Positions 6,844-35,027 of a stretch of DNA of 64,000 nt are shown here, one piece after another. Source of the DNA: an uncultured bacterium (GTDB taxonomy: Bacteria > Fermentibacterota > Fermentibacteria > Fermentibacterales > JCC-6); NCBI GenBank assembly GCA_964624405.1, contig CAZUXA010000005.1, positions 13,376-77,375 on the forward strand. Reading direction: 5' to 3'. Numbering within the stretch: position 1 is the stretch's first letter; each line of letters opens with the position of its first letter. The translations under genes and the position numbers were made by a program. Under the pieces are notes generated by a model. That model ran no database searches. It was given only the letters and a program-made list of their open reading frames with translations, and was not told the origin of the DNA.

Positions 6844-6906
6844 GGCTGCAATATGCTTGTAAAAGCCTGGGTTGACGAACGGCGGAAACCCGGTAGAATA
6901 CCATTA

Positions 6907-6924
6907 TTGTGAAAACAGTAACAG
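6907..6924 (+). promoter_or_regulatory. candidate Rex operator half-site (TTGTGAA) upstream of rex; a second TTGTGA at 6944
   Basis: TTGTGAAAACAGTAACAG; only the left half matches the Rex consensus TTGTGAAnnnnTTCACAA well. Confidence 0.2.
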
Positions 6925-6948: not shown

Positions 6949-7605
6949 GTGATAGGTGATGTGATGAGAGAAAAAGCGGTGATAGCAGCGAACACGGTGG
7001 AACGGCTCAGCCTCTATCGAAGGCTTCTCGAGGCATGGCTTGAGAAGGGAACTTCCAGCCTCTACTCCCATCAGATTGCAGCCATGGCCTGCGTGACCCC
7101 CGCCCAGGTTCGAAGGGACCTAATGGCAATAGGATACTCCGGCAGCCCCAACAGGGGCTACTCTGTTGATGCCCTGGAGGAGAGTATCGGCACATTCCTC
7201 GGAAGCGACCGGGTTCGAAAGATCGGCCTGGTTGGCATGGGTAACCTGGGGAGAGCCCTCACCACCTACTTCACTTCCAGGGTTCCACGCTTCAAAATGG
7301 CCGCCGCCTTCGACATCGATCCGAAGAAGACCGGAAGAGTGATCGCCGGATGCATGGTTTACGGTATAGAAATGATCCCGGAGATTATTCCCGCGGAGGG
7401 AATTCGAACCGCGGTGCTGGCGCTTCCCGTCGAGAGCGCCCAGCACATGGCGGACATGCTTGTGAAGGCTGGAATAAAGGGGATTCTGAATTACGCTCCG
7501 GTGCCGCTTCGGTTGCCGGCGGATGTTTTTCTGGAAAACCGGGATGTCACCGCCGCCCTGGAAAAAGTGGCGTTCTTCTCCGGACCTTCCAGTGAAGGGA
7601 AATGA
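6949..7605 (+). CDS. rex: redox-sensing transcriptional repressor Rex
   Basis: Winged-helix N-terminus plus Rossmann NAD(H) domain GLVGMGNLGRAL; typical Rex length (218 aa). Confidence 0.85.
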   Translation: MIGDVMREKAVIAANTVERLSLYRRLLEAWLEKGTSSLYSHQIAAMACVTPAQVRRDLMAIGYSGSPNRGYSVDALEESIGTFLGSDRVRKIGLVGMGNLGRALTTYFTSRVPRFKMAAAFDIDPKKTGRVIAGCMVYGIEMIPEIIPAEGIRTAVLALPVESAQHMADMLVKAGIKGILNYAPVPLRLPADVFLENRDVTAALEKVAFFSGPSSEGK

Positions 7606-7608
7606 TCA

Positions 7609-8085
7609 ATGAGTGAGAGCAGTGTGGAAAAGATCATAGCAAGGTATCCCGGAGCGGAAAGGGACAAACTGATCCCCATTCTCCAGGAAGTCCAGGAATC
7701 CGAAGGTTTTCTGAAGAGGGATGCTGTGGTTCTGATAGGAAAGCACCTTGGTGTTCCCGCCAGCCGCATATACGGAGTGGCAACATTCTACAACCAGTTC
7801 AGATTCGAACCGATCGGCAGATTCCATATACAGGTGTGCAGGGGGACCGCCTGCCATGTGAAGGGCTCTCTGAAGGTTCTGGAGTCACTGAAGAGGGAGA
7901 TCGGAGTGGAACCGGGAAGAACCACCAGGGACGGTCTTTTCAGCATAGAGGTGGTGGCGTGCATAGGAGCCTGCGGGCTTGCCCCGGTCATTTCGATAAA
8001 CGGCGAGTTTCACGCCAAACTTACTCCGGATGATGTTCCGGTTCTGCTGGAAAGCTGCAGGAAGAAAGCCCTGGAGGTGGGATGA
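7609..8085 (+). CDS. hydC: NuoE-like [2Fe-2S] thioredoxin-like subunit of [FeFe]-hydrogenase (HydC/HndA type)
   Basis: CRGTACHVKGS...VVACIGACGLAPV four-Cys [2Fe-2S] motif of NuoE/HoxE family; start 4 nt after rex stop. Confidence 0.85.
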   Translation: MSESSVEKIIARYPGAERDKLIPILQEVQESEGFLKRDAVVLIGKHLGVPASRIYGVATFYNQFRFEPIGRFHIQVCRGTACHVKGSLKVLESLKREIGVEPGRTTRDGLFSIEVVACIGACGLAPVISINGEFHAKLTPDDVPVLLESCRKKALEVG

Positions 8086-10076
8086 TGCCGATAATCCTTG
8101 ACAGATGCTGCGAAAAGTGTTCCCACTCCCAGGCTGAACCCTGCCCAATGGCCATAGAATGTCTGCTGGACGGACCGCTCTGCCACGAAAGCCCCGCTTG
8201 CTCAGAAGCAAGGAACACCTGGAAAAGCAAGGTTCAAAGGTCAGGACTATCTCAGCCTGTTATCTTTGCCGGCGCGGGAACCTGCGGGTTGGGTGCCGGA
8301 GCCGGATCGACCATACAGGCCATCCGGGAGTTCCTTGACACCCGGTCCATTCCATGCACCATTGTTGAAGTGGGCTGCATCGGCCTTTGCGCCGTGGAAC
8401 CCATCGTGGACATCATGCTTCCGGGAAGGGCGAGAGTTTCCTTCGCCGGGGTCACCCACGACAGGGTTTGCGCACTACTGGAATCCATGCTTGAAAGGGG
8501 CGAAGTACCGGAAGACATGGCGCTTTGCCAGTTTACCGGCACGGGAGAAACCTGGAAGGGAGTCCCTCTCTTCAGTGAACACCCGTTTTTCGGCCCTCAG
8601 ACAAGATGGGTTCTGGAAAACTGCGGGACAATGAACCCGGAAAGCCTGGAGGAGTACCTGGCGGCCGGGGGATACCGCGCCTTTGCCGTCACGCTGAGAA
8701 CCCGGACACCGGAAAGCACCTGCGATATCGTTGAAGAAAGCGGTCTTCGGGGCAGGGGCGGAGGCGGCTTTCCCGCCGGCAGAAAATGGCGGTTCGCCCT
8801 GAATACACCATCCGGATCGAAGTATGTGATATGCAACGCCGACGAGGGCGACCCCGGGGCCTTCATGGACAGGGCCGTGATTGAGGGAGACCCCCACAAA
8901 CTGATCGAAGGCATCGCCATAGCCTCCTATGCGGTGGGCGCCAACAAAGCGTACATCTACATACGGGCTGAATACCCCCTGGCGATTCAGAGGCTGAGAA
9001 AGGCTTTGGAACAGGCGGAAAACCAGGGCATTCTTGGAACCAACATTTTCGACAGTGGCTTTGATCTCAACATTGTTATAAAAATGGGGGCGGGCGCCTT
9101 CGTTTGCGGCGAGGAAACCGCTCTCATCCACAGCATAGAAGGTCACCGGGGCATGCCTTCCCCGAAACCGCCTTTTCCCGCGGTAAGCGGTCTGTTCGGA
9201 AAACCAACGGTCATCAACAATGTTGAGACCCTGGCGAATGTGCCCGGCATTCTGAACAACGGTCCGGGTTGGTTCCGCTCCGCGGGCACCGAAAACAGCC
9301 CGGGAACAAAGGTGTTCGCCCTTTCCGGAAAAATCACCAACACCGGCCTCATTGAAGTCGCGATGGGAACCCCCATCCACGACATTCTGTTCAGCATGGG
9401 CGGGGGAATCCCGGACGGAAAGGCGTTCAAGGCGGTACAGATCGGTGGTCCTTCCGGAGGCTGCATCCCCGACGGACATACCGACCTTAGAATAGACTAC
9501 GAATCCCTTGGAGAGTTCGGCGCCATGATGGGCTCCGGGGGGCTTGTGGTCATGGATGAGGACACCTGCATGGTTGATGTAGCCAAGTTCTTCATGGATT
9601 TCATCCAGAGGGAGAGCTGCGGCAAGTGCATTCCCTGCAGGGAGGGGACAAGAAGACTTCTGGAGATACTCAACGCGATTACCCGGGGTTACCGTGACGA
9701 AACCCCGGAACAGGCGCTGGAAAGGTTCAGGGGCATCGTTAATCTGGAAAGGCTTGGACAGGTGATCAGGAAGACCAGCCTCTGCGGTCTGGGCCAGACC
9801 GCGCCGAATCCGGTTCTCAGTACTCTGCGGTGGTTCAGGGATGAGTACGAGGCTCATATTTTTGAACGAAAGTGCCCCGCCGGAGTATGCACCGGCCTGC
9901 TCACATTCTCCATAGACGAGGACGCTTGCCGCGGTTGCACCCTGTGCGCCGGAAAATGCCCTACAGGGGCAGTCAAGGGCGCCCGGAAGAGCCCCCACTA
10001 CATTGTGACCTCCGAATGCATTGGCTGCGGCGCCTGCCTCGAGGTATGTCCCTTCGACGCCGTCAGGGTTCACTGA
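8082..10076 (+). CDS. hydB: NuoF-like flavoprotein subunit of [FeFe]-hydrogenase (HydB/HndC type; NAD(P)H and FMN binding, multiple Fe-S)
   Basis: GRGGGGFPAGRKW NADH/FMN fingerprint, SCGKCIPCREG [4Fe-4S], C-terminal 2x CxxCxxCxxxCP ferredoxin motifs, Cys-rich N-terminal extension. Confidence 0.9.
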   Translation: MMPIILDRCCEKCSHSQAEPCPMAIECLLDGPLCHESPACSEARNTWKSKVQRSGLSQPVIFAGAGTCGLGAGAGSTIQAIREFLDTRSIPCTIVEVGCIGLCAVEPIVDIMLPGRARVSFAGVTHDRVCALLESMLERGEVPEDMALCQFTGTGETWKGVPLFSEHPFFGPQTRWVLENCGTMNPESLEEYLAAGGYRAFAVTLRTRTPESTCDIVEESGLRGRGGGGFPAGRKWRFALNTPSGSKYVICNADEGDPGAFMDRAVIEGDPHKLIEGIAIASYAVGANKAYIYIRAEYPLAIQRLRKALEQAENQGILGTNIFDSGFDLNIVIKMGAGAFVCGEETALIHSIEGHRGMPSPKPPFPAVSGLFGKPTVINNVETLANVPGILNNGPGWFRSAGTENSPGTKVFALSGKITNTGLIEVAMGTPIHDILFSMGGGIPDGKAFKAVQIGGPSGGCIPDGHTDLRIDYESLGEFGAMMGSGGLVVMDEDTCMVDVAKFFMDFIQRESCGKCIPCREGTRRLLEILNAITRGYRDETPEQALERFRGIVNLERLGQVIRKTSLCGLGQTAPNPVLSTLRWFRDEYEAHIFERKCPAGVCTGLLTFSIDEDACRGCTLCAGKCPTGAVKGARKSPHYIVTSECIGCGACLEVCPFDAVRVH

Positions 10077-10082
10077 GGAAGG

Positions 10083-11804
10083 TTGATGATGAAACTCACC
10101 ATAAACGGAAAAACAGTGGAAGCAAGGAATGGTGAAACCATTCTTGAAGCGGCGAGAAAGATTGGTCTGGATATTCCCACACTGTGTCACATGGAAGGTC
10201 TGGCGCCGACGGGGACATGCCGGGTCTGCGTGGTGGAAGACAGGAAAACCGGAAAACTCATACCTTCCTGCTCCTACCCCGCGGCGGAGGGAATGGAAAT
10301 CGCCACTCACTCCAATCAGGCTGTGGCAGCCCGGAAAACCATTATCGAGCTGCTTCTGGCCTCCCACCCTGACGATTGCCTGTACTGCCCCGGAAACGGC
10401 ACCTGTGTTCTCCAGCGCTACGCGCAGGAACTTGGCGTGAGGCAGAGAAGCTACTCCGGAGCCAGAAACCGGATCAATCTTGATGTCTCCAGCCCATCCA
10501 TAATCAGGGATCCGGAGAAGTGCATACTCTGCGGAAGATGCGTCAGGGTCTGTTCCGAAGTGCAGGGAGTGAGCGCCATAGATTTCACAGGAAGGGGAAG
10601 CGGCGCACAGGTGGCATGCGCCTTTGACGAGGGCCTGAATATTTCCAGCTGCGTTAACTGCGGACAGTGTGTGATGGTGTGCCCCACCGGCTCACTCACC
10701 GAGCGCAGGGATGTGGAACGGGTGATGAAAGCCCTTGACGATCCTGAAGTTACTGTGGTGGTTCAGCATGCTCCTGCGGTATCTGTAAGCCTTGCGGAGG
10801 AGTTCGGCTTGAAGCCCGGAAGCGACATCGTAGACAAGATGAACGCGGCCTTTCGTCGCATGGGGTTCGACAGTGTGTTCCCCACCAGCTTCAGCGCGGA
10901 CCTCACCGTAATGGAAGAAGCCAATGAGCTTGTGCAGCGAGTCAGAAACGGTGGCCCGTTTCCCATGTTCACCAGTTGTTCTCCGGGCTGGATCAAATTC
11001 CTGGAGGAGTTCCACCCGGAGATGCTGGGAAACGCATCCACCTGCAAGAGTCCCCAGCAGATGATGGGCGCGGTGATCAAACGACTCTGGGCTCCGGCAA
11101 ACAACCTTGACCCCCGGAAAGTCTTCAGCGTTTCGATAATGCCCTGCACCGCCAAAAAGTTCGAGGCGGCAAGGCCCGAAATGGGCGGGGACACCCAGGA
11201 TGTGGACGCGGTACTCACCACCCGGGAACTCGCGGAACTGATCAGGATTTTTGGAATCGACATAGCCATGCTCGAAGGCGAACCAGCGGACAGCCCCTTC
11301 GGGGACAGGAGTTCCGCGGGCAAGCTGTTCGGTGCATCGGGAGGCGTAATGGAGGCCGCGGCCAGAACGGCCTTTCACATGCTTACCGGCGAAAATCTGG
11401 CGGAGTTGAAGCTGGACGAGGTAAGAGGTCTTGACGAAGTGAAGGAAACCACGCTGCTCATCAACGGGCTTGAGTTAAGGGTCGCGGTGGTGAGCGGCCT
11501 CGGAAATGCCGGAAGACTGCTGAAAGACATCATTGCCGGAAAACGCACGTATCACTTCGTTGAAGTCATGTCATGCCCGGGAGGATGCATCAACGGCGGT
11601 GGCCAGCCATACCTTACAAACCCCGAGAGGGTCAGGGCGAGAATGCAGACCCTGTACGAAATCGACAGAAACGCAAGCCTCAGGGTCGCCCACGAAAACC
11701 CCTCCATCAAGGCCCTGTACAGGGATTTTCTGGAAGAACCGGGAAGCGAAAGGGCGCACCATCTTCTTCACACGGAGTACACCGCCCGGGAGGTGCTCAG
11801 GTAA
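10083..11804 (+). CDS. hydA: [FeFe]-hydrogenase catalytic subunit (HydA) with N-terminal 2Fe-2S and 4Fe-4S domains; L1 motif reads TSCSPGW
   Basis: Plant-type 2Fe-2S CHMEGLAPTGTCRVC; H-cluster L2 MPCTAKKFE and L3 EVMSCPGGCINGGGQP present; L1 FTSCSPGW (Ser at the second Cys position). Confidence 0.9.
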   Translation: MMMKLTINGKTVEARNGETILEAARKIGLDIPTLCHMEGLAPTGTCRVCVVEDRKTGKLIPSCSYPAAEGMEIATHSNQAVAARKTIIELLLASHPDDCLYCPGNGTCVLQRYAQELGVRQRSYSGARNRINLDVSSPSIIRDPEKCILCGRCVRVCSEVQGVSAIDFTGRGSGAQVACAFDEGLNISSCVNCGQCVMVCPTGSLTERRDVERVMKALDDPEVTVVVQHAPAVSVSLAEEFGLKPGSDIVDKMNAAFRRMGFDSVFPTSFSADLTVMEEANELVQRVRNGGPFPMFTSCSPGWIKFLEEFHPEMLGNASTCKSPQQMMGAVIKRLWAPANNLDPRKVFSVSIMPCTAKKFEAARPEMGGDTQDVDAVLTTRELAELIRIFGIDIAMLEGEPADSPFGDRSSAGKLFGASGGVMEAAARTAFHMLTGENLAELKLDEVRGLDEVKETTLLINGLELRVAVVSGLGNAGRLLKDIIAGKRTYHFVEVMSCPGGCINGGGQPYLTNPERVRARMQTLYEIDRNASLRVAHENPSIKALYRDFLEEPGSERAHHLLHTEYTAREVLR

Positions 11805-13823
11805 ATGGCGGTACAGATAGACCCGCTGGTGCAGTCAGTTCCCGAGAAATGCAAGGTATGCTATACATGCGTCAGGGAATGCCCCGCCAAGGCCATCAGG
11901 ATACTGGACGGGCAGGCCGAGGTGGTGGCGGAACGGTGTATTGGATGCGGCAACTGCGTCAAGGTCTGTACCCGGGGGGCCAAGAAGGCCAGGGTGAACA
12001 TTTCCGATGTGAAAACACTCCTGGAATCCGGCCGAAGGGTGGCTGCGGTTGTAGCCCCGAGTTTTCCCGCCGAGTTCCCGGACATACCTCCAAAAAAGCT
12101 TGTCGGCATGCTTATCAGGCTTGGTTTTCATCCGGTGACGGAAGTAGCTTTCGGCGCCGATATGGTGGCCCACGCATACCGGGAGCTCCTCAGAAAAAAC
12201 CCTGACCGGCAGTACATCGCAGTGAACTGCCCCGCGGTTGTGACTTACATCGAGAAGTACATGCCACAACTGGTGCCGTATCTGGCCCCGATCGTCTCTC
12301 CCATGACCGCGGAAGCCAGGGTGGTGAGAACCTTCTATGGAGAGGATACCGCCGTGGTGTTCATCGGACCCTGCATCGCAAAGAAGGATGAAGCTCCCGA
12401 TGAGTTGGACCAGGTTCTCACATTCATCGAACTCAGGGAGCTCTTCGCCGAGAAGGGCATCACCCCGGATGGAGTGGAGGAAGCACAGTTCAATCCTCCA
12501 AGCCCGGGTCTCGGCGCCATCTTTCCCATCAGCGGAGGAATGCTTCAGGCGGCGGACATGAAGGAGGATCTCGTTGCGGGAGACATAGTCACCGCCGAGG
12601 GAAGGGCGGGGTTTCTCGAAGCCCTCAAGGAGTTTGAGAACGACGATATGGACCCGAGGCTTCTTGAACTCCTGTGCTGTGACGGCTGCATCATGGGGCC
12701 CGGAATGTCCAGCAAAGCTCCGATTTTCAGAAGAAGGGCAAAAATAAGCCATTATGCCAGATCCAGGCTCAACGAAATCAACTTCAACAACTGGAATGTG
12801 GCCATGGACCGCTCCAGCGCCATCAATCTTGACAGAACCTTCAGTGAGAAGGACACAAGGCTAACCTCTCCAGGAGAAGAGGATGTTCAGGACATTCTCT
12901 GCAGGATGGGCAAGTCCACTCCGGAGGATGAGCTGAACTGCGGGGCCTGCGGTTACGACACATGCAGGGAACACGCGGTGGCGATTCTGAAAGGCCTTGC
13001 GGAAAGCGAAATGTGCCTTCCCTACGCCATAGACCAACTGAAACTCACGGTGGATGAGCTTGCCGGCACCAGGGTCGCCCTCAAACATGCGGAAAAGATG
13101 GCGGGAATGGGCCAGCTGGCCGCGGGAATAGCCCACGAGGTGAACAACCCGCTGGGAGTGGTTCTCATGTATGCCCACACACTTCTGGATGAACGGGCGA
13201 AGGAAGACCCTGAGCTGGCCGAAGACCTGAAAACCATAGCGGCACATGCGGACAGGTGCAAGAAAATCGTGGCTGGCCTGCTGGATTTCGCCAGACAGAA
13301 CAAGGTGTCCCGCAGGGATACTGATCTGCCGGTGTTCGCGTCGAAAGTGGCCGGCGATCTCCCCAGACCAGTGGGAGTTGAGCTTCTGGTTGAGAACCGG
13401 ATGAAAGACCCGATGGTGAGCGTTGACGACGACCAGTTCGCCCAGGTTGTGATAAACCTGGTTCAAAATGCCTACCAGGTTATGAATGAAGGCGGGAAGC
13501 TTGTTCTTTCTTTCGAAGACAGAGACAACAGAGTGATAATGAAGGTCACCGACAACGGCGCGGGAATAAGCCCGGAGAACATGAAGAAAATCTTCGAGCC
13601 CTTTTTCACAACCAAACCCAGGGGCAAGGGTACCGGGCTGGGGCTGGCGGTGACCTATGGAATTGTCAAGATGCACCGTGGGAGCATAACGGCGGTTTCC
13701 AACATCGACCCCGAAAAGGGTCCAACAGGAACCACGTTCACCGTAACCCTTCCCAGAAGGGTAAGCGAGGAAGAGGGAAGGAACCACAATGGAGCGGAAT
13801 CTGACCATACTGCTGGTGGATGA
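11805..13823 (+). CDS. sensory [FeFe]-hydrogenase-like (HydS-type) H-cluster domain fused to a histidine-kinase transmitter (HisKA + HATPase)
   Basis: Two N-terminal 4Fe-4S ferredoxin motifs; H-domain with L1-like VNCP, L2-like GPCIAKKDE, L3-like ELLCCDGCIMG; Cys cluster C-x14-C-x2-C-x4-C; H-box HEVNNPLG, N-box NLVQNAYQ, G1 DNGAGI, G2 GTGLGLAV. Confidence 0.8.
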   Translation: MAVQIDPLVQSVPEKCKVCYTCVRECPAKAIRILDGQAEVVAERCIGCGNCVKVCTRGAKKARVNISDVKTLLESGRRVAAVVAPSFPAEFPDIPPKKLVGMLIRLGFHPVTEVAFGADMVAHAYRELLRKNPDRQYIAVNCPAVVTYIEKYMPQLVPYLAPIVSPMTAEARVVRTFYGEDTAVVFIGPCIAKKDEAPDELDQVLTFIELRELFAEKGITPDGVEEAQFNPPSPGLGAIFPISGGMLQAADMKEDLVAGDIVTAEGRAGFLEALKEFENDDMDPRLLELLCCDGCIMGPGMSSKAPIFRRRAKISHYARSRLNEINFNNWNVAMDRSSAINLDRTFSEKDTRLTSPGEEDVQDILCRMGKSTPEDELNCGACGYDTCREHAVAILKGLAESEMCLPYAIDQLKLTVDELAGTRVALKHAEKMAGMGQLAAGIAHEVNNPLGVVLMYAHTLLDERAKEDPELAEDLKTIAAHADRCKKIVAGLLDFARQNKVSRRDTDLPVFASKVAGDLPRPVGVELLVENRMKDPMVSVDDDQFAQVVINLVQNAYQVMNEGGKLVLSFEDRDNRVIMKVTDNGAGISPENMKKIFEPFFTTKPRGKGTGLGLAVTYGIVKMHRGSITAVSNIDPEKGPTGTTFTVTLPRRVSEEEGRNHNGAESDHTAGG

Positions 13824-14178
13824 CGACCAGGATTACATCGAACAGATGAGGCTGATGCTGGAGACCGGAGGTTACACCGTTCACACATGCATCACCAGGG
13901 AGAAGGCCGAGGAGCTCCTCGGGACGATGAAGCCGGATATTGCGGTAATCGACCTGATGATGGAGCAGAACGACGACGGATTTGTTCTGGCCTACCGGCT
14001 CAAGAAGAAGTACCCCGATGTGCCTGTGATCATGGTGACCGCCGTTACCAGTGAAACCGGAATCGATTTTACATCAGCACCGGACACCGGAGGCTGGATG
14101 AAAGCCGATGCCCTGCTGCAGAAACCGGTTCGGTTCGAGCAACTGGAAGCCCAGATAAAACGGTTGTGCCATGGATAG
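13789..14178 (+). CDS. single-domain response regulator (CheY-like receiver)
   Basis: LLVDDDQDY, phospho-acceptor context AVIDLMM, VTAVT, LQKPV (Lys-Pro). Confidence 0.8.
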   Translation: MERNLTILLVDDDQDYIEQMRLMLETGGYTVHTCITREKAEELLGTMKPDIAVIDLMMEQNDDGFVLAYRLKKKYPDVPVIMVTAVTSETGIDFTSAPDTGGWMKADALLQKPVRFEQLEAQIKRLCHG

Positions 14179-15307
14179 GGAAATGACGCTGAAGCTTCTG
14201 GTGGTTGATGACGAAACCGGAATGCGCATGGGTATCCGCCGTGCTCTGAGGAACTTTCAGAGTGAGCCGGACGACACCGGCCTGATTGTCAGGCTGTCGG
14301 TTGAAGAGGCGGAAAGCGGTGAACAGGCCATCGAAAAGATAAAGGACTCCCCTCCGGATATTGTTCTGCTTGACCACAGGATGGGGGGAATAACCGGGCT
14401 CGATGTGCTGAACTGGATGGAGGACAACAGCCCGGATGTTCTTGCCATAATGATAACCGCCTACGCATCGCTGGAAAACGCCATAAACGCCACAAAAAAA
14501 GGAGCTTTCGACTTCCTTCCAAAACCCTTTACCCCTGCCGAACTCAAGGTTGCGGTGAGACAGGCGGTGAAGCACGTTCTGGCGGTTCGTGAAGCCAAAA
14601 GGCTCTCCGAAGAGAAACGGAGGGTTCGATTCCAGTTCATCAGCGTTCTCGCTCACGAGCTGAAGGCCCCCCTGGGGGCCATTGAGGGATATCTCTACCT
14701 GCTTCAGGACGGAACGGCTCTCAGTAATCCGGAAACACTTCCAAGGGTTGTGGAAAGAAGCCTCGTCAGGCTTCAGGGCATGAGAAAACTGATCTATGAC
14801 CTTCTCGACCTTACCAGGATCGAAAGCGGAGAAAAGAAGAGGGAGCTGGCGGAGGTTGATGTGGTGCAGGCGGCGAATGCCAGCGTTGAAACCATGGCGC
14901 CGGACGCGGCTTCCCGGGGAATTGAAATCGTGTTGAACGCGCCTGAGCACCTTCCCATGCTTGGTGATCGGAGCGAACTGGAGATCATTCTGAACAACCT
15001 GGTATCCAACGCCGTTAAGTACAACCGTGACAATGGAAAAGTTACGGTTACCCTGACGGAATCTCCGGAGGATGTGACCATTTCGGTTGCCGATACCGGA
15101 ATCGGTATGACCGAAGAGGAGAGGGAGCGGCTTTTCGGCGAGTTCGCAAGGATCAAGAACGAGAAGACCCGCAACATTCTGGGCAGCGGCCTGGGGCTCA
15201 ACATTGTAAAGCGGATAGCCGGGCTCTACGAAGGCAGCGTGACTGTGGAGAGCACGCCTGACGCCGGAAGCACCTTCACGGTAACACTCAAGAAGGCACT
15301 GGCATGA
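14171..15307 (+). CDS. hybrid receiver/histidine kinase (REC-HisKA-HATPase), no sensor domain
   Basis: N-terminal REC (LLVVDDE...IVLLDHRM...FLPKPF), H-box SVLAHELKAPLG, N-box NLVSNAVKYN, G boxes DTGIGM / GSGLGLNIV. Confidence 0.8.
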   Translation: MDREMTLKLLVVDDETGMRMGIRRALRNFQSEPDDTGLIVRLSVEEAESGEQAIEKIKDSPPDIVLLDHRMGGITGLDVLNWMEDNSPDVLAIMITAYASLENAINATKKGAFDFLPKPFTPAELKVAVRQAVKHVLAVREAKRLSEEKRRVRFQFISVLAHELKAPLGAIEGYLYLLQDGTALSNPETLPRVVERSLVRLQGMRKLIYDLLDLTRIESGEKKRELAEVDVVQAANASVETMAPDAASRGIEIVLNAPEHLPMLGDRSELEIILNNLVSNAVKYNRDNGKVTVTLTESPEDVTISVADTGIGMTEEERERLFGEFARIKNEKTRNILGSGLGLNIVKRIAGLYEGSVTVESTPDAGSTFTVTLKKALA

Positions 15308-20086: not shown

Positions 20087-23000
20087 TCAAGGCGAATCCG
20101 TGCTCCAGAAAGCAGGCCTGGTCGTTGAGACTCCCCTGGTTTCCAAAACCTCGATGAGTTGCCGGTAATCTTCAAGCATGCCCTGCTTGATTCGGTGCCT
20201 CTCCACATGAAGCCTGAGTTGGTCGCAGAGCGTCTCCGCTTCCTTCAGTCTGTCCAGTTCAACGAGAAGAAGTCCTTTTACCCCCATGGCGTAGGCGGTG
20301 TTGAGAACATCGTTGGTCAGGGCGTTGATTCTGAGTGATTCGTTCGCGCTCTCCATGGAGCCGTCGAAATCTCCGGTCATCCGCTGAATGTTCGCCTTGT
20401 TCACAAGGGCGATGGCAACGGTGCGGTAATTCCTGGTACGGCTTGCCAGCTCAATGGAGGCATCGGTGAATTCCATGGCTTCCCGGATGTTCCCGCGTTT
20501 TTTGGCAAGCAGGCCAAGGTTTCCGAGAAGCGTGGATTCATGGATTCTGTCTCCGGTTTTTCGCGAGGCATCAAGGGCCTCGAGGAAGAGTTCCTCGGCT
20601 CTTTCGAAACGCTCACGCCTGGCGCAGGCAATGGCGAGGCTGTTGAGGGAGTACCCCAGACCCAGAAGGTTACCCTGCTTTTTCTGGAGTCTGATGGCCT
20701 TTTCTGCGTAGCTTGCGGAAAGGGCGTCTTCGCCGAACCTGAAGGCGTGAACCGCCATGTTGGAATAGAGTGATGCCGCTTCGGGCTCCATGCCGTGTTT
20801 TTCCATCACATCCGTGGCTTCCCTGTACAGATCCATGACTCCTTCTGTGATGCCGGTGCTGCTTCTGTAGTTTGCCAGAGTCATGTTTATCTTCGCGGCG
20901 AGTATCTCATTCCTGCCCGCGAGGGCAATCTTCATGGCTTCTTCGATGGTGCTTTCAAACTCGGGGTTTCTTCCCAGTTCCTGAAGTACGGCAGCCCGGG
21001 CACGCAGGGCGATGCCCTCCCATGCGAGGCTGTTTTTCTCCCTTGCTTCCGAGGCAATCCGGTCGGCGGTGCGTATGGCATCCTCGTGTTCGCCCTTTCT
21101 CTTGAGAATCTCATGCCAGACCAGAAGGGCGTTCATTCTTTCCTCCCAGTACCGGTCATCCCCGGCTTTTCCGGCAAGTTCCATAATGCGCTTCGCGAAT
21201 CCCAGGGTTTCTTCGGGCCGTCCTCCATCCCTGGCTGTCATCATTGCCCTGCTTGCCCATTCCAGGGATTTCTTCCAGTCCTGCGCCGCTTCCCAGTGGG
21301 CGAACAGCACCGGCGCCAGGGCATCGAGCTCGGTGGGGTTCAGTTGCTCTATTGATTCCGCGGCGGCCTTGTGCAGAATTCTGGAATTGTGTTTCAGCAG
21401 TGTTTCGTAAGCGGCAACCCTGACCAGGGAGTGACGGAAGCTGAATGATTTGCCGTCTGCCCCGGAAAGAAATCCCCTGTTTTCCAGGTTGAGGAGTATC
21501 TCGCCGAGATTGTCCCCCAGCTCGGATACACGCCTCACCATCGAATCAAGAACCGTTGTCTCGAATCTTTCGCCAAGGACGGAAGCATACTGCAGGATTC
21601 TTCTCTCCTGTTTCGGAAGCCTGTCCATTCTGGCCTGAGTGAGAACCGAGATCGACCCCGGGATTTTTACCTGGTCGCAGGAAAGAGAAAGGGTGCAGCA
21701 ATCGTCGCTGTTCCTCAGTATGCCGTCGGATTCAATGAGGCTCAGCACGAGTTCCTCGACAAAGAAAGGGTTACCCCGGCCCACGGAGCGTATCAGGCGT
21801 TTGAGTTCGTCGTCCAGAAGGTCTGTCTGCAGGAGGTAAGCCGCAATGGAGAGACAGTCGTCATCACTCAGAGGCTCCAGATAAATTGTGTTCACCGACA
21901 GGGAGGGGTTCAGCAGAACAGGAGCCGGCAGACGGGTTGTCATGATTATTCCCGCGGGCTGGATAAAAAGGCCCTGGCTGAGAATGTCTTGCAGAAGCCT
22001 CATGGAGAGCTCATCCGCCCACTGAAGATCTTCCAGAAGAAGCAGGGTTCCCGAGGTGGAGAACACCGCTTCCAGGGCGGAACGGACTGTGTTGGTAACG
22101 GTGCTGAACTCCGGGGAGAAGTTTTCAAAGCCCGTGGCATCCATGCTCAGAATAGCCGCGAGTTGAGGGGCGCAGCTTTCCAGAACCGTTCTCGGCCTTT
22201 CCTCTCCGCAACTGGCGGCAAGCTCTTTGATTCCGGCTTGGTACCATTCGGCGGTTTCGCCCCCGGGGCTCCCGGCGTTGAAGTAGCCCCGCAGCAGGCT
22301 TATCCACAGCCAGCAGGAAGGCTGGGCGTGGGATAGGGCGTAGCCCCGCAGCACCCTGTACTCGCCCAATGAAACGATGCATTCGTGGGCCAGGCGGGAT
22401 TTCCCTATGCCCGGGTCTCCCACCATGATGAAAACCGGTGGTTCGCAGGCACTCAGGCCCGTGGGTTTCAGGGCTTTCCCTATGGATTCTCTGACCCTTG
22501 ATCTTCCGACAAAAGGCGCCCCATAAAGCCTGGAAGCCCGTTCCCACCTCTCGAACCGGATTTTGCCGGGACCGGTGGGCTCGAAAGAGGCCACCGGCGA
22601 ACTGATGCCGCGAATAGCCACTTTCCCGGTATCGATCCAGGTGTACAACTCTCCGCACTCGCGCCTGACCGCCTCGCTGACCAGAGCGGTTCCCGGGCTG
22701 CCAGACTCTTCCAGCCTGGAGGCAAGATTAACCGTAAGCCCGGTGGCGGTCAAATGGCCGGACGGGTCGGGAGCCACGGTCAGAGGGCCGAAATCGATGC
22801 CTATCCTGGCGGATAGGCCTGGAAACTCCGGCAAAGCCGGGCGAAGCTCGTCCAGAAGATCGAGCATGCGCAGAGCGCAACCAACGGCTCTGGCGCTGTC
22901 GTTCTCCGTGGAGGCTATGGCTCCGAACAGAGCCATCAGCCGGTCTCCCTCGAATTTGTCAACATAGCCGCCGCAGGAGTTTACCACCCTGGAGAGAAGG

Positions 23001-23239
23001 CCCATAACCCGTCCAAGAAGGACATGCAGATCTTCATGGTCAATTGCTTCCGAAAGCAGAGTGAAGCCGGTCAGGTCCAGAAAAAGAACCGCGGCCCGCC
23101 GTCTCTCACCTTCGATGATCCTGGATGTTTCTCCGCACGGGAAAAATGTGTTTCCCGGAACCCTTGCAAGGGCGTCGTCCAGAACGGAGGAAACCCGATC
23201 CATGGAAATACGGCTCGCCAGAGTCGTCCCTCCGTTCAT
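20087..23239 (-). CDS. class III adenylate/guanylate cyclase domain + STAND/AAA ATPase + TPR repeats signalling protein (1050 aa)
   Basis: Cyclase motif AVLFLDLTGFT...KFEGDRLMALFG; P-loop VGDPGIGKS; long C-terminal TPR-like helical repeats. Confidence 0.75.
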   Translation of the reverse strand: MNGGTTLASRISMDRVSSVLDDALARVPGNTFFPCGETSRIIEGERRRAAVLFLDLTGFTLLSEAIDHEDLHVLLGRVMGLLSRVVNSCGGYVDKFEGDRLMALFGAIASTENDSARAVGCALRMLDLLDELRPALPEFPGLSARIGIDFGPLTVAPDPSGHLTATGLTVNLASRLEESGSPGTALVSEAVRRECGELYTWIDTGKVAIRGISSPVASFEPTGPGKIRFERWERASRLYGAPFVGRSRVRESIGKALKPTGLSACEPPVFIMVGDPGIGKSRLAHECIVSLGEYRVLRGYALSHAQPSCWLWISLLRGYFNAGSPGGETAEWYQAGIKELAASCGEERPRTVLESCAPQLAAILSMDATGFENFSPEFSTVTNTVRSALEAVFSTSGTLLLLEDLQWADELSMRLLQDILSQGLFIQPAGIIMTTRLPAPVLLNPSLSVNTIYLEPLSDDDCLSIAAYLLQTDLLDDELKRLIRSVGRGNPFFVEELVLSLIESDGILRNSDDCCTLSLSCDQVKIPGSISVLTQARMDRLPKQERRILQYASVLGERFETTVLDSMVRRVSELGDNLGEILLNLENRGFLSGADGKSFSFRHSLVRVAAYETLLKHNSRILHKAAAESIEQLNPTELDALAPVLFAHWEAAQDWKKSLEWASRAMMTARDGGRPEETLGFAKRIMELAGKAGDDRYWEERMNALLVWHEILKRKGEHEDAIRTADRIASEAREKNSLAWEGIALRARAAVLQELGRNPEFESTIEEAMKIALAGRNEILAAKINMTLANYRSSTGITEGVMDLYREATDVMEKHGMEPEAASLYSNMAVHAFRFGEDALSASYAEKAIRLQKKQGNLLGLGYSLNSLAIACARRERFERAEELFLEALDASRKTGDRIHESTLLGNLGLLAKKRGNIREAMEFTDASIELASRTRNYRTVAIALVNKANIQRMTGDFDGSMESANESLRINALTNDVLNTAYAMGVKGLLLVELDRLKEAETLCDQLRLHVERHRIKQGMLEDYRQLIEVLETRGVSTTRPAFWSTDSP

Positions 23240-32753: not shown

Positions 32754-35027
32754 TTGAAAACACCGAAAGGGGACGGCATGCTGCTTCTTGTTATCACCCT
32801 GCTTTCAGCATCGGGATTTAATGGCGTTTACGGGGATTGGTACAGCCTTGGCGGTGAGTACGGCGGCGAAACCTCTGTAACCACTCGAGATTACGGCATG
32901 GAGGGATTGTCGGTGGAGGTCACTGTTCCCGGGTTCGAAATACTCCAGGCAAACGGATATACCCGGCTGAGACTTTTTGATCGTAAGTGGGACCTTGACC
33001 TGCCTTCAGGTTCTCCGGAGCTTCCCATAGTTCCCATAGCCATAGGCCTTCCGTCCGGAATGGGGGCGGAGGTTTCATCGGTGGATGTGACCTGGGTTTC
33101 TGTGGGTGATGTCACGGTGCATCCGGTTCAGCCCCTGGAGTACGACTGCGCCGGAGAACGCCCGGCCTTTGTGGAGCTCTCCACTGAACTGGTTGGCGTT
33201 CATCCGGCTGAAGCGGTGGTTATCGGGGAGACGGGAAGCCTTTTCGGTGTGGATGTGGCAAGGGTGTTGATAAACCCCTTCCGCTGGAATGCCGACACCG
33301 GGCTTCTCGAGGCGGCCTCCACCGTATCGGTGAACATTGCCTTCACCGGCTCCCCCGGATTTCAGATTCCCGTCCGGCCCGAAACCGCCCGGATTCTTCG
33401 CAGTCTGCTTCTTAACTACGACGAGATGGGGATACCGGTGAACAACAGCCCGGTAACCTCTGAAGACGTGGTTTACATAGTGCTCACAGTGGAGGAGAAT
33501 CTGCCCGAGATAACTCCCCTTCTATCAATGGTGCACCTTCTCGGTTACCGGGTTGCCATTGAGTTGTTCGAAACCACTCCTTCGGCCTTTCAGATCCGTT
33601 CCACCATTCTGTCCCACTATCAACCCGGGGTAACCCGCTTCGCGCTTATTGCCGGAACTCACCAGCAGCTTCCATCCTTCAATTTCGGATCCTTCGTGGG
33701 TGACTTTTTCTACCAGACCCTCGACGGCGACAACCTGCCGGACATCGCCGTTGGCCGTTTCCCGGGGGGCGAAGGCCTTCTGGCCAACATGGTGGATAAA
33801 TCCATGGCCTATTCCAACTTCACCGGAACCCCGGGGGAACCTTCGATTCCTGCCGTCACCATGCTCTGCGCCCACGAAGAGGAATATCCGGGGAAGTACA
33901 CCTTCAACAAGAACGAGATAATGAACTGGAACTATTCGATAATGAACCCGGTTTTTCACACCTTCTACCCGCCGGAAGGCGCCACCCAGCAGCAGGTGAA
34001 AGACATGATCAACGCCGGGGTCGGAACGGTGAACTACAGAGGCCACGGCTCGGTGACAACATGGCAGTGGTCACCGGGCTGGAACGCCGGAGCCATCTAC
34101 TCCCTGGAGAACACATTCTTTCCCCCAGTTTTCAACATAGCGTGCGACAACGGCAAACACGATGTCACATACCAGTGCCTGTGCAAAAGCTGGCTGTACG
34201 CCCAGGGCCGGGGGGCAAGCGGCACCTGCGGAGCCAGCGCTCCTTCCGCCACAATTGTGAACAACACCTTCGACAAAGCGATATACAAGCAGCTTTACGA
34301 TGAGGGCAACACCTGCGCCGCCGAAATGCACGCCGCCGCCCAGACCACCATCATCCTCACTCACGGCTCGTCCGGCATCAACAACGCCAGAATGTACCAC
34401 TGGTTCGGCGATCCCTCCATGGATATTTTCAACTGCGACGAAACGGGTTCACCGTTTCCGATGGAGCTTGAATGCCCTGAGTATGTCTATCACGGCGCGA
34501 ACAGCATGGTCGTCACGGTTACCTCCCGGGGATTGCCGGTGCAGGGGGCGGTGGTCACCGCGTCGGACGGCATAGGCAATCACACGGACCACCCTGAAAC
34601 CTTCTACGCCCAGGGCATCACCGACTCGGCGGGCCAGACCGTGCTGGATTTTGAGGCACAGAGCGGTTCCACGGTGAATGTCGGCGCAAGGATGCACAAC
34701 CTTACCCCGGCGTTTGCAGCGGTGAACACATACTCCGAAGGAGTCCAGGGCGATGAGGCTGCGGTATTCGCCCTGCTTCCCGCCTCGCCGAATCCATCCG
34801 CTTCCCGGGTCACCCTGGGCATGGACCTTCCCTCGGCAGGAGCGTATGACCTGAGCGTCTTCGATCTTGCGGGGCGCCTTGTGGATTCTGTATGCAGCGG
34901 CTACCTGGAAGCGGGTCAGCACCGCTATTCATACTCGACGGAACAGCTCTCTCCGGGGCTTTACTTCGTTGTTCTCAGAGGCGGGGAAATCACCGCCACC
35001 ACGAACATGCTGGTCATAGGCCGATGA
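32754..35027 (+). CDS. peptidase C25 (gingipain-like) family cysteine protease with T9SS C-terminal sorting domain
   Basis: C25 core NYRGHGSVTTWQW...FNIACDNGKHD (His/Cys dyad context); C-terminal VFDLAGRLV...GLYFVVLRGG...NMLVIGR matches the Por/T9SS CTD pattern. Confidence 0.75.
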   Translation: MKTPKGDGMLLLVITLLSASGFNGVYGDWYSLGGEYGGETSVTTRDYGMEGLSVEVTVPGFEILQANGYTRLRLFDRKWDLDLPSGSPELPIVPIAIGLPSGMGAEVSSVDVTWVSVGDVTVHPVQPLEYDCAGERPAFVELSTELVGVHPAEAVVIGETGSLFGVDVARVLINPFRWNADTGLLEAASTVSVNIAFTGSPGFQIPVRPETARILRSLLLNYDEMGIPVNNSPVTSEDVVYIVLTVEENLPEITPLLSMVHLLGYRVAIELFETTPSAFQIRSTILSHYQPGVTRFALIAGTHQQLPSFNFGSFVGDFFYQTLDGDNLPDIAVGRFPGGEGLLANMVDKSMAYSNFTGTPGEPSIPAVTMLCAHEEEYPGKYTFNKNEIMNWNYSIMNPVFHTFYPPEGATQQQVKDMINAGVGTVNYRGHGSVTTWQWSPGWNAGAIYSLENTFFPPVFNIACDNGKHDVTYQCLCKSWLYAQGRGASGTCGASAPSATIVNNTFDKAIYKQLYDEGNTCAAEMHAAAQTTIILTHGSSGINNARMYHWFGDPSMDIFNCDETGSPFPMELECPEYVYHGANSMVVTVTSRGLPVQGAVVTASDGIGNHTDHPETFYAQGITDSAGQTVLDFEAQSGSTVNVGARMHNLTPAFAAVNTYSEGVQGDEAAVFALLPASPNPSASRVTLGMDLPSAGAYDLSVFDLAGRLVDSVCSGYLEAGQHRYSYSTEQLSPGLYFVVLRGGEITATTNMLVIGR

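Follow-up and report, generated by a model that had tools for sequence, protein, structure and literature searches.

In a 64,000-nt stretch of DNA from an uncultured Fermentibacterales bacterium (assembly GCA_964624405.1, contig CAZUXA010000005.1), hereafter the window, we examined the gene hydS-HK (11805..13823, + strand). According to its open reading frame (ORF) and Pfam matches, it codes for a 672-residue protein, hereafter the sensor, that joins a sensory [FeFe]-hydrogenase (HydS) module of group C type to a HisKA/HATPase_c histidine kinase. Our preferred reading, to which we assign a probability of roughly 70%, is that the sensor acts as an H2-sensing histidine kinase made of a single polypeptide, with the hydrogenase module as its input. 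Pfam orders its domains as Fer4x2, Fe_hyd_lg_C, FeS (PF04060), HisKA and HATPase_c, with E-values spanning 1e-9 to 1e-43; because of these values and of the invariance of every ligand cysteine in the family, the sensor motifs are not due to chance. Family counts given below over 77 refer to alignment A1, which holds 77 members at 56–100% identity, and a 100% identical protein (P0001) is found in metagenome data of the Joint Genome Institute (JGI). A preliminary description of the gene, made from the letters alone, proved largely correct in its observations, apart from one mis-specified motif, and right in outline in its interpretation, although it treated known hallmarks as special.

The hydrogenase-type input module

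The N-terminal ferredoxin-like domain (F-domain; Pfam Fer4 families, residues 11–59; 11835..11981, +) carries two [4Fe-4S] motifs whose eight cysteines are all conserved in the family. The first, CKVCYTCVRECP at residues 16–27, reads C16-x2-C19-x2-C22-x3-C26-P. The second, CIGCGNCVKVCT at residues 45–56, comprises C45, C48, C51 and C55 and ends in Thr; the residue following C55 is Ser or Thr across the family and never Pro. Hence, of the two CxxCxxCxxxCP motifs initially reported, the first stands as written and the second lacks the proline.

The H-domain (Fe_hyd_lg_C, PF02906; residues 78–299; 12036..12701, +) matches positions 2–245 of the 245 profile positions, with 149 bits and an E-value of 1.8e-43. 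All non-kinase matches of the sensor listed from PDB sequences are [FeFe]-hydrogenases, and the best PDB sequence match of the kinase part is the ZraS kinase 9jfj (2.7e-30). An AlphaFold2 monomer model built on alignment A1 has a mean predicted local distance difference test score (pLDDT) of 81.6, with values above 90 across most of residues 60–360. Among the 50 PDB structural matches shown by Foldseek, ZraS kinase chains cover the C-terminal third and all the others are [FeFe]-hydrogenases, with CbA5H, HydABC, DdH (target TM-score 0.67) and CpI at E-values of about 1e-19. The H-domain is therefore genuine, as first proposed. A NuoG/formate-dehydrogenase type Fe-S module, named in the preliminary description as the case that would overturn it, is excluded by Pfam and Foldseek: the NADH-G_4Fe-4S_3, Fer2_4 and molybdopterin families have no Pfam match in the sensor, while NuoG-type families do match the N terminus of the neighboring HydA and are thus detectable by the same scan.

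Aligned by phmmer with T. kivui HydA1 (8a6t), the three H-cluster motifs L1 to L3 fall where they had been assigned, with neither a shift nor a full TSCCP. At L1 (V-N141-C142-P, residues 140–143; 12222..12233, +), the segment 'yiavnCP' lies over 'MFTSCCP'. The pairing of avnCP with TSCCP therefore puts Asn141 at the position of Cys299, the proton relay of CpI, and Cys142 at that of the ligand Cys300, in agreement with the claim that only the ligand cysteine is kept. C142 and P143 are invariant (77/77), and position 141 is occupied by Thr (36 members), Ser (28), Asn (11), Ala (1) or Pro (1), with Cys in 0/77. At L2 (G188-P-C190-IAK193-KD-E196; 12366..12392, +), 'figPCiaKKdEa' is aligned over 'VMPCIGKKFEA'; GPCIAKKDE (residues 188–196) indeed corresponds to MPCxxKxxE, with Gly at the CpI Met353 position, and G188, P189, C190, K193 and E196 are invariant in 77/77. 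At L3 (E288-LL-C291-C292-DG-C295-IMG; 12666..12698, +), 'ellccd-gC' lies over 'EVMACPgGC', so that the placement of ELLCCDGCIMG (residues 288–298) is also upheld, with C292 and C295 as conserved ligands in Cx2C spacing.

For comparison beyond the family we used a wider set of 137 representatives of 50%-identity clusters matching residues 1–420 (1073 clusters at E<=1e-30). No family member lacks C292 or C295 (77/77), and both are kept in 136/137 of these wider relatives. C291 is Cys in 73/77 family members and in 8/137 wider relatives, which mostly have F, A or Y there; C291 is specific to the sensor-kinase family, C292 being the universal cysteine of the L3 'CC' pair. Overall, the four H-cluster ligands C142, C190, C292 and C295 are present in 77/77 family members and in at least 135/137 wider relatives, and of the residues that lie over the [2Fe]-binding positions, A84-P85-S86, K193 and E196 do not vary in the family and F240 is kept in at least 90%. 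The conservation of all ligands and of the [2Fe]-aligned residues argues that a real H-cluster is bound in the sensor.

The features that define the group A proton route, TSCCP with Cys299 and the Glu279/Glu282/Arg286 pathway, are not found. In the pairwise alignment to 8a6t, with CpI numbers assigned by our own mapping, Ala occupies the position of Glu279 and Arg286 falls inside a 3-residue gap, and positions 124 and 127 are not conserved in the family; by these alignments, the canonical group A proton pathway is missing. Loss of the relay cysteine, although correctly noticed, is nothing special, as it is a published general trait of HydS proteins: Cys is present at the 299 position in only ~17% of sensory [FeFe]-hydrogenases and Ala is the commonest residue (PMC10055695). 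Our 137 wider representatives reproduce this pattern (A 52, P 21, T 17, S 16, C 11, N 8). Both TmHydS of Thermotoga maritima, with Ala at 299, and TamHydS of Thermoanaerobacter mathranii keep low but measurable catalysis (PMC8163306, PMC10055695, PMC10407848), and TamHydS uses an alternative proton pathway (PMC10407848). The statement that the sensor binds H2 but does not turn over was thus too strong; by analogy with these enzymes, it would better be said to turn over slowly.

The input module ends in a C-terminal [4Fe-4S] motif, C379-x2-C382-x4-C387-x16-C404 (Pfam PF04060 'FeS', residues 377–406, E=3.3e-9; 12939..13016, +), in which each of the four cysteines is invariant (77/77). This is the motif that had been mis-specified, as C-x14-C-x2-C-x4-C: the x2-C-x4-C part holds, but the first spacing is C366-x12-C379, Cys366 (12900..12902, +) is no ligand and the fourth ligand is C404. 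Position 366 is Cys in 1/77, the sensor itself, and Ala, Glu or Gln elsewhere, and in the 137 wider relatives Cys is not among its eight commonest residues; this lack of conservation rules out Cys366 as a fourth or fifth ligand. Nor is the cluster an extra feature, except with respect to group A. Indeed, the motif Cx2Cx4Cx16C has been published for the C-terminal [4Fe-4S] cluster of TmHydS and TamHydS (PMC8163306), and PMC13104023 speaks of it as a 'unifying structural feature' of groups C and D.

From the last cluster ligand to the kinase

The absence of a PAS domain that would separate the H-domain from the kinase, proposed initially, is borne out. No PAS family matches the sensor at E<=0.01 in Pfam, a meaningful negative since the same scan detects the domain in PAS-bearing relatives (P0181, P0158 and P0125). 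In the AlphaFold2 model, residues 300–464 are essentially all helical, without β-sheet and with a lone one-residue strand or bridge at 343; the helices between L3 and the H-box span residues 307–324, 327–336, 358–367, 387–395, 405–419 and 424–464. Together with a spacing of 40 residues between Cys404 and His444, this rules out that a PAS domain lies hidden between Fe-S motif and kinase. The H-box HEVNNPLG is present as described (residues 444–451), with His444 as its histidine. Its distance of some 60 residues from the cluster is right when counted from Cys387 (57 residues), but only 40 residues separate it from the true last ligand, Cys404.

The segment joining Cys404 to His444 (13017..13133, +; model helices 405–419 and 424–464) is a putative signaling helix. 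Across 179 direct fusions, the spacing from the Cys404 equivalent to the histidine is 47 residues in 148 sequences, 40 in 19, 54 in four, 33 in two and 68 in one; 174/179 share one heptad phase (5 mod 7), and the exceptions have spacings of 24, 38, 48, 49 and 49. The sensor and its closest relatives have the 40-residue linker, one heptad below the 47 of most of the family, and the missing heptad corresponds to 'AEKNDEL' of P0012. As the linker length varies almost only by multiples of seven, it fits an unbroken helix or coiled-coil transmitter running from cluster to kinase. By eye, the linker consensus places hydrophobic residues at +1, +8, +15, +22 and +29 past Cys404. The heptad-locked linker length is new in the present analysis.

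The kinase comprises a HisKA domain, the dimerization and histidine phosphotransfer (DHp) domain (residues 436–498, E=1.9e-15; 13110..13298, +), with His444 as the phospho-acceptor, and a HATPase_c catalytic domain (residues 541–651, E=3.4e-24; 13425..13757, +). His444 is invariant in the family, as are N551, N555, D583, G585, G587 and G609–L614, which we read as the N, G1 and G2 boxes. The sensor thus has both elements of a HisKA-class kinase, the H-box histidine and a HATPase_c domain bearing N and G boxes, and its kinase appears intact by sequence. A further cysteine, Cys485 in DHp helix 2 (ADRC485KKIV; 13257–13259), is Cys in 76/77 family members.

Relatives, distribution and outputs

The sensor resembles TmHydS (group C, M2f) in its two N-terminal [4Fe-4S] clusters, its four H-cluster cysteines, the lack of Cys at 299, the Gly at the Met353 position, the C-terminal Cx2Cx4Cx16C motif and the location of its gene beside another hydrogenase. 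TmHydS, however, ends in a PAS domain without a kinase, whereas the Fe-S domain of the sensor leads straight into HisKA/HATPase_c; in addition, TmHydS has Ala at 299 against Asn, Thr or Ser in the sensor family, and Ser at the Met497 position against Leu here. With respect to the published definition of group C HydS (PMC8163306), the sensor thus has the two [4Fe-4S] clusters at the N terminus as well as the C-terminal Cx2Cx4Cx16C motif and lacks the C-terminal PAS domain. TamHydS (group D, M2e) likewise has no PAS domain, shares the ligand numbers C379 and C404, has a C-terminal helix predicted to form a parallel dimer and has a kinase-like ATPase gene nearby. It is not fused to a kinase, and it carries Glu252 and Ser/Thr at the Met353 position, the marks of group D (PMC8163306, PMC10407848), where the sensor has Met246 and Gly188. 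The family has M, L or I at this Glu252 position and the wider representatives have Glu in 0/137, as mapped to residue 246 through the description 'Val after GG' (PMC10407848) and not through a TamHydS alignment. Met246 and Gly188 (77/77) rule out membership of group D. As there is no Glu at the former position and the latter holds Gly as in TmHydS, the active-site signatures point to a group C like protein.

Comparable fusions are on record. HydDB has listed a 'histidine kinase-linked' group C1 since 2016, a PAS-less kinase fusion was noted in Elusimicrobia (Meheust et al., bioRxiv 10.1101/765248, 2020), and a group C hydrogenase that carries a histidine-kinase domain and is encoded downstream of bfuA was named 'BfuT' in Hydrogenedentota, Caldithrix abyssi and Bacteroidota (PMC11406978, 2024), the kinase-fused proteins of Caldithrix and Hydrogenedentota being assigned to HydDB group C in the same work. 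The fusion of Elusimicrobia lineage V and BfuT (sub-type V BfuABC) have the same architecture and the same setting of hydCBA, sensor kinase and Rex as our sensor, with no essential difference. Indeed, the related loci collected here include metagenome-assembled genomes (MAGs) of Hydrogenedentota, Calditrichota, Elusimicrobia and Bacteroidota, among them MAG CSSed162cmA_463, an example in PMC11406978. Ligand conservation, linker length and the partners made of a receiver domain (REC) or of REC and a histidine kinase are analyzed here and absent from those papers. Caldithrix abyssi and Ignavibacterium album are cultured carriers named in these works. With the sensor, a known and widespread subfamily of sensory [FeFe]-hydrogenases that is biochemically uncharacterized gains one more ordinary member. 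A similar logic is found in HoxBC/HoxJ, where a low-activity hydrogenase provides the H2 input to a two-component histidine kinase controlling hydrogenase genes. This [NiFe] system (HydDB group 2b) differs in its unrelated metal site and fold, in being made of separate proteins and in the PAS-like domain of HoxJ.

In a word-indexed protein search, 120 clusters were listed, which all share one domain set and a length of about 665 residues. A scan covering a single genome for each GTDB species found at least 593 loci that encode the PAS-less kinase fusion. The best 80 of these, all from MAGs, carry about 19 phylum-level labels, including Fermentibacteria, Planctomycetota, Hydrogenedentota, Myxococcota, Calditrichota, Bacteroidota, Acidobacteriota, Elusimicrobia and Verrucomicrobiota, and the closest species genome among the matches listed is a Fermentibacteraceae MAG (64% identity).

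In the wider set, we assigned outputs by clustering the tails past Cys404 and running Pfam on cluster representatives. PAS only follows in 61 representatives, a histidine kinase in 38 (some with an intervening PAS or GAF domain), a sigma54-AAA+ domain with helix-turn-helix (HTH) in 16 (with or without PAS), GGDEF in three and the signaling domain of methyl-accepting chemotaxis proteins (MCP) in three. P0165, P0171, P0134 and P0160 have no PAS domain after this input module, which leads into sigma54-AAA+ with HTH, GGDEF or MCP outputs. Such proteins read as possible one-component H2-responsive regulators, cyclases and chemoreceptors, and they appear to be little described. Because sigma54-AAA+, GGDEF and MCP outputs can each follow this one module directly, the HydS input module behaves as a portable sensor domain.

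Gene setting, signaling model and alternatives

The sensor gene is the fifth of a gene cluster on the + strand. It is preceded by a rex-like gene, the first of the cluster (6949..7605; Pfam Put_DNA-bind_N and CoA_binding), and, by Pfam, by hydC (7609–8085), hydB (8082–10076) and hydA (10083–11804; match to T. kivui HydA1 at 1e-185); hydCBA (7609..11804) encode a trimeric [FeFe]-hydrogenase of group A, HydABC type. The ATG of hydS-HK abuts the hydA stop codon with zero gap. Downstream come genes for a stand-alone receiver of 129 residues (13789..14178, +; Pfam Response_reg) and for a REC-HisKA-HATPase_c hybrid kinase of 378 residues (14171..15307, +; Pfam), the receiver frame overlapping the 3' end of the sensor gene by 35 nt and the hybrid kinase frame by 8 nt.

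Among related loci with enough flanking DNA for each count, hydA lies directly upstream of the sensor gene in 57/68, hydB is near it in 49/58 and hydC in 50/58, a Rex homolog is found upstream in 31/55 (downstream in Bacteroidota loci), the REC-HisKA-HATPase hybrid is directly downstream in 67/70 and a stand-alone receiver is adjacent in 61/72. The order rex-hydCBA-hydS/HK-REC-REC/HK is nearly always the setting of the PAS-less fusion, and the cluster is kept across about 19 phylum-level labels. In about eight loci (L036, L040, L041, L044, L056, L070, L071 and L028), the receiver gene sits between hydA and the sensor gene. In the Bacteroidales loci L049, L057, L059 and L067, Rex is encoded downstream and the other strand carries a second HydS-like gene upstream, which agrees with the remark on 'two bfuT' in PMC11406978.

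In the field, the characterized HydS-type [FeFe]-hydrogenases are called 'putative' sensors and lack a measurable output. In the H2-sensing kinase that we favor, the input would start with the pair of N-terminal [4Fe-4S] clusters, continue with an H-cluster site that lacks the proton relay of group A and end in the C-terminal HydS [4Fe-4S] cluster. The H-cluster would react slowly with H2, like those of TmHydS and TamHydS, and the resulting change of redox state or conformation would reach the C-terminal Fe-S domain. There, Cys404, the last cluster ligand, would open the helix that runs into the DHp helix bearing His444, and the signal would travel through the coiled coil of a dimer and switch autophosphorylation. 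From there, phosphoryl groups would presumably move to the stand-alone receiver, the REC-kinase hybrid encoded downstream, or both, and the sensor, together with Rex as the NADH sensor, would tune the co-encoded HydABC. Consistent with such a scheme, the characterized HydS proteins are slow, high-affinity H2 enzymes that have been proposed as sensors (PMC8163306, PMC10055695, PMC10407848), and an AF2 homodimer model of TamHydS places its protomers parallel along the C-terminal helix.

Several points weigh against this reading. Signaling by any HydS has not been demonstrated in vivo or in vitro, and the role is called putative in the literature. In TamHydS, H2 does not reduce the C-terminal cluster, and mutation of one of its ligands barely alters catalysis (PMC13104023). 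These results cast doubt on a redox relay through this cluster, at least in group D, and by analogy a conformational route is at least as likely. The monomer model has pLDDT values below 50 over residues 419–456, that is, in the linker and DHp region, the Fourier spectrum of linker hydrophobicity does not decide for or against a period of 3.5 residues, its peak lying at 3.6, and the 179 direct fusions are related sequences whose heptad counts are not independent events. Finally, no DNA-binding response regulator, NtrC-type or other, was found in the conserved cluster or among the window ORFs scanned.

The sensor could instead report redox state or electron flux: docked on HydABC in the manner of an accessory 'T' subunit, or by way of ferredoxin, it would read the reduction of the Fe-S chain through its N- and C-terminal clusters and convey the ferredoxin/NADH status to the kinase. 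The position of its gene directly downstream of hydA, with probable translational coupling, its three accessory [4Fe-4S] clusters, the presence of another redox sensor, Rex, in the same gene cluster and the subunit-like name BfuT given in the 2024 survey (PMC11406978) all agree with such a role. We nevertheless consider it unlikely, as a full H-cluster site with invariant [2Fe]-aligned residues would be needless in a pure redox sensor, the solved HydABC complexes among the matches listed are HydABC only, with no HydS subunit, and 11/68 family loci have no adjacent hydA.

NreB-type Fe-S kinases are switched by oxidative damage to their cluster. In the same manner, oxidation of a [4Fe-4S] cluster of the sensor, for example the C-terminal one, could switch the kinase and so protect the O2-sensitive hydrogenase. 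That Cys404 directly abuts the signaling helix, that TamHydS reacts unusually with O2 (PMC8163306) and that sensing through the integrity of Fe-S clusters is established as a principle (PMC13104023) would suit an O2 or oxidant sensor; such a sensor is nonetheless improbable, since it leaves unexplained both the conservation of the whole H-domain with all [2Fe]-site residues and the use of the module with chemotaxis, cyclic di-GMP and sigma54 outputs. Least probable of all is a mainly slow catalytic hydrogenase whose kinase serves another purpose, or a degenerate H-domain remnant holding the [4Fe-4S] subcluster only: TmHydS and TamHydS do evolve and oxidize H2 measurably (PMC8163306, PMC10055695, PMC10407848) and standard H-cluster motifs were reported as hard to find in some group C1 sequences (PMC11406978), but the motifs are present and invariant in the family once aligned, the invariant H, N and G boxes of the kinase imply that both halves are under selection, and the canonical proton pathway is missing (Asn/Thr/Ser at 299, Ala at 279, a gap at Arg286).

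A tentative extension of the H2-sensing kinase, which we hold possible but doubtful as a whole, is a portable, PAS-independent H2-input device: the last ligand would anchor a register-locked coiled coil, and the same lever would drive kinase, sigma54-AAA+, GGDEF and MCP outputs. In the sensor family it would feed a conserved three-protein phosphorelay and, because this relay has no DNA-binding member, might act by post-transcriptional or protein-level control of the bifurcating hydrogenase more than by simple gene regulation. The window gene itself brings nothing qualitatively new; its main value lies in a convenient single-polypeptide system for tests of H2 sensing. Fusion of hydrogenase and kinase reduces the assay to one protein, with H2-dependent autophosphorylation as readout, and the helix from Cys404 to His444 is a defined lever for mutation. 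Since the family is widespread in uncultured anaerobes and encoded beside electron-bifurcating hydrogenases, it probably matters for the response of fermenters to H2 partial pressure.

Upstream of the cluster, a consensus scan found a promoter-like TTGACG-16-TAGAAT (6872–6899; 10/12 matches), followed by TTGTGAAAACAGTAACAG (6907–6924), the whole spanning 6872..6924 on the + strand. We take TTGTGAAAACAGTAACAG, just upstream of rex, to resemble an imperfect Rex operator when read against the Rex-box consensus, as a candidate only. This candidate operator suggests autoregulation of the whole rex-hydCBA-hydS cluster, within which no internal terminator was predicted on the coding strand. A sigma54 promoter for the operon, an idea derived from the NtrB/ZraS-like kinase, was rejected: 17 matches were found where 29 were expected, none of them near the operon start.

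The partner HydA reads T-S-C-S-P at residues 297–301 (10971–10985), with Ser where Cys300, the [4Fe-4S]H ligand, would stand and with Cys299 kept; its numbering coincides with that of CpI at this site. No discussion of the TSCSP motif was found in a literature search, which returned irrelevant matches only. The motif occurs in 51/62 partner HydAs of the related loci and in the solved A. woodii HydA1 (7q4v), which makes it a natural variant among active bifurcating enzymes. Elsewhere in the window lie genes for a 1050-residue adenylate/guanylate cyclase-AAA-tetratricopeptide repeat (TPR) protein (20087–23239, −) and for a C25 peptidase with a type IX secretion system (T9SS) tail (32754–35027, +), the latter fitting an organism of the Fibrobacterota-Chlorobiota-Bacteroidota (FCB) group, Fermentibacteria-like.

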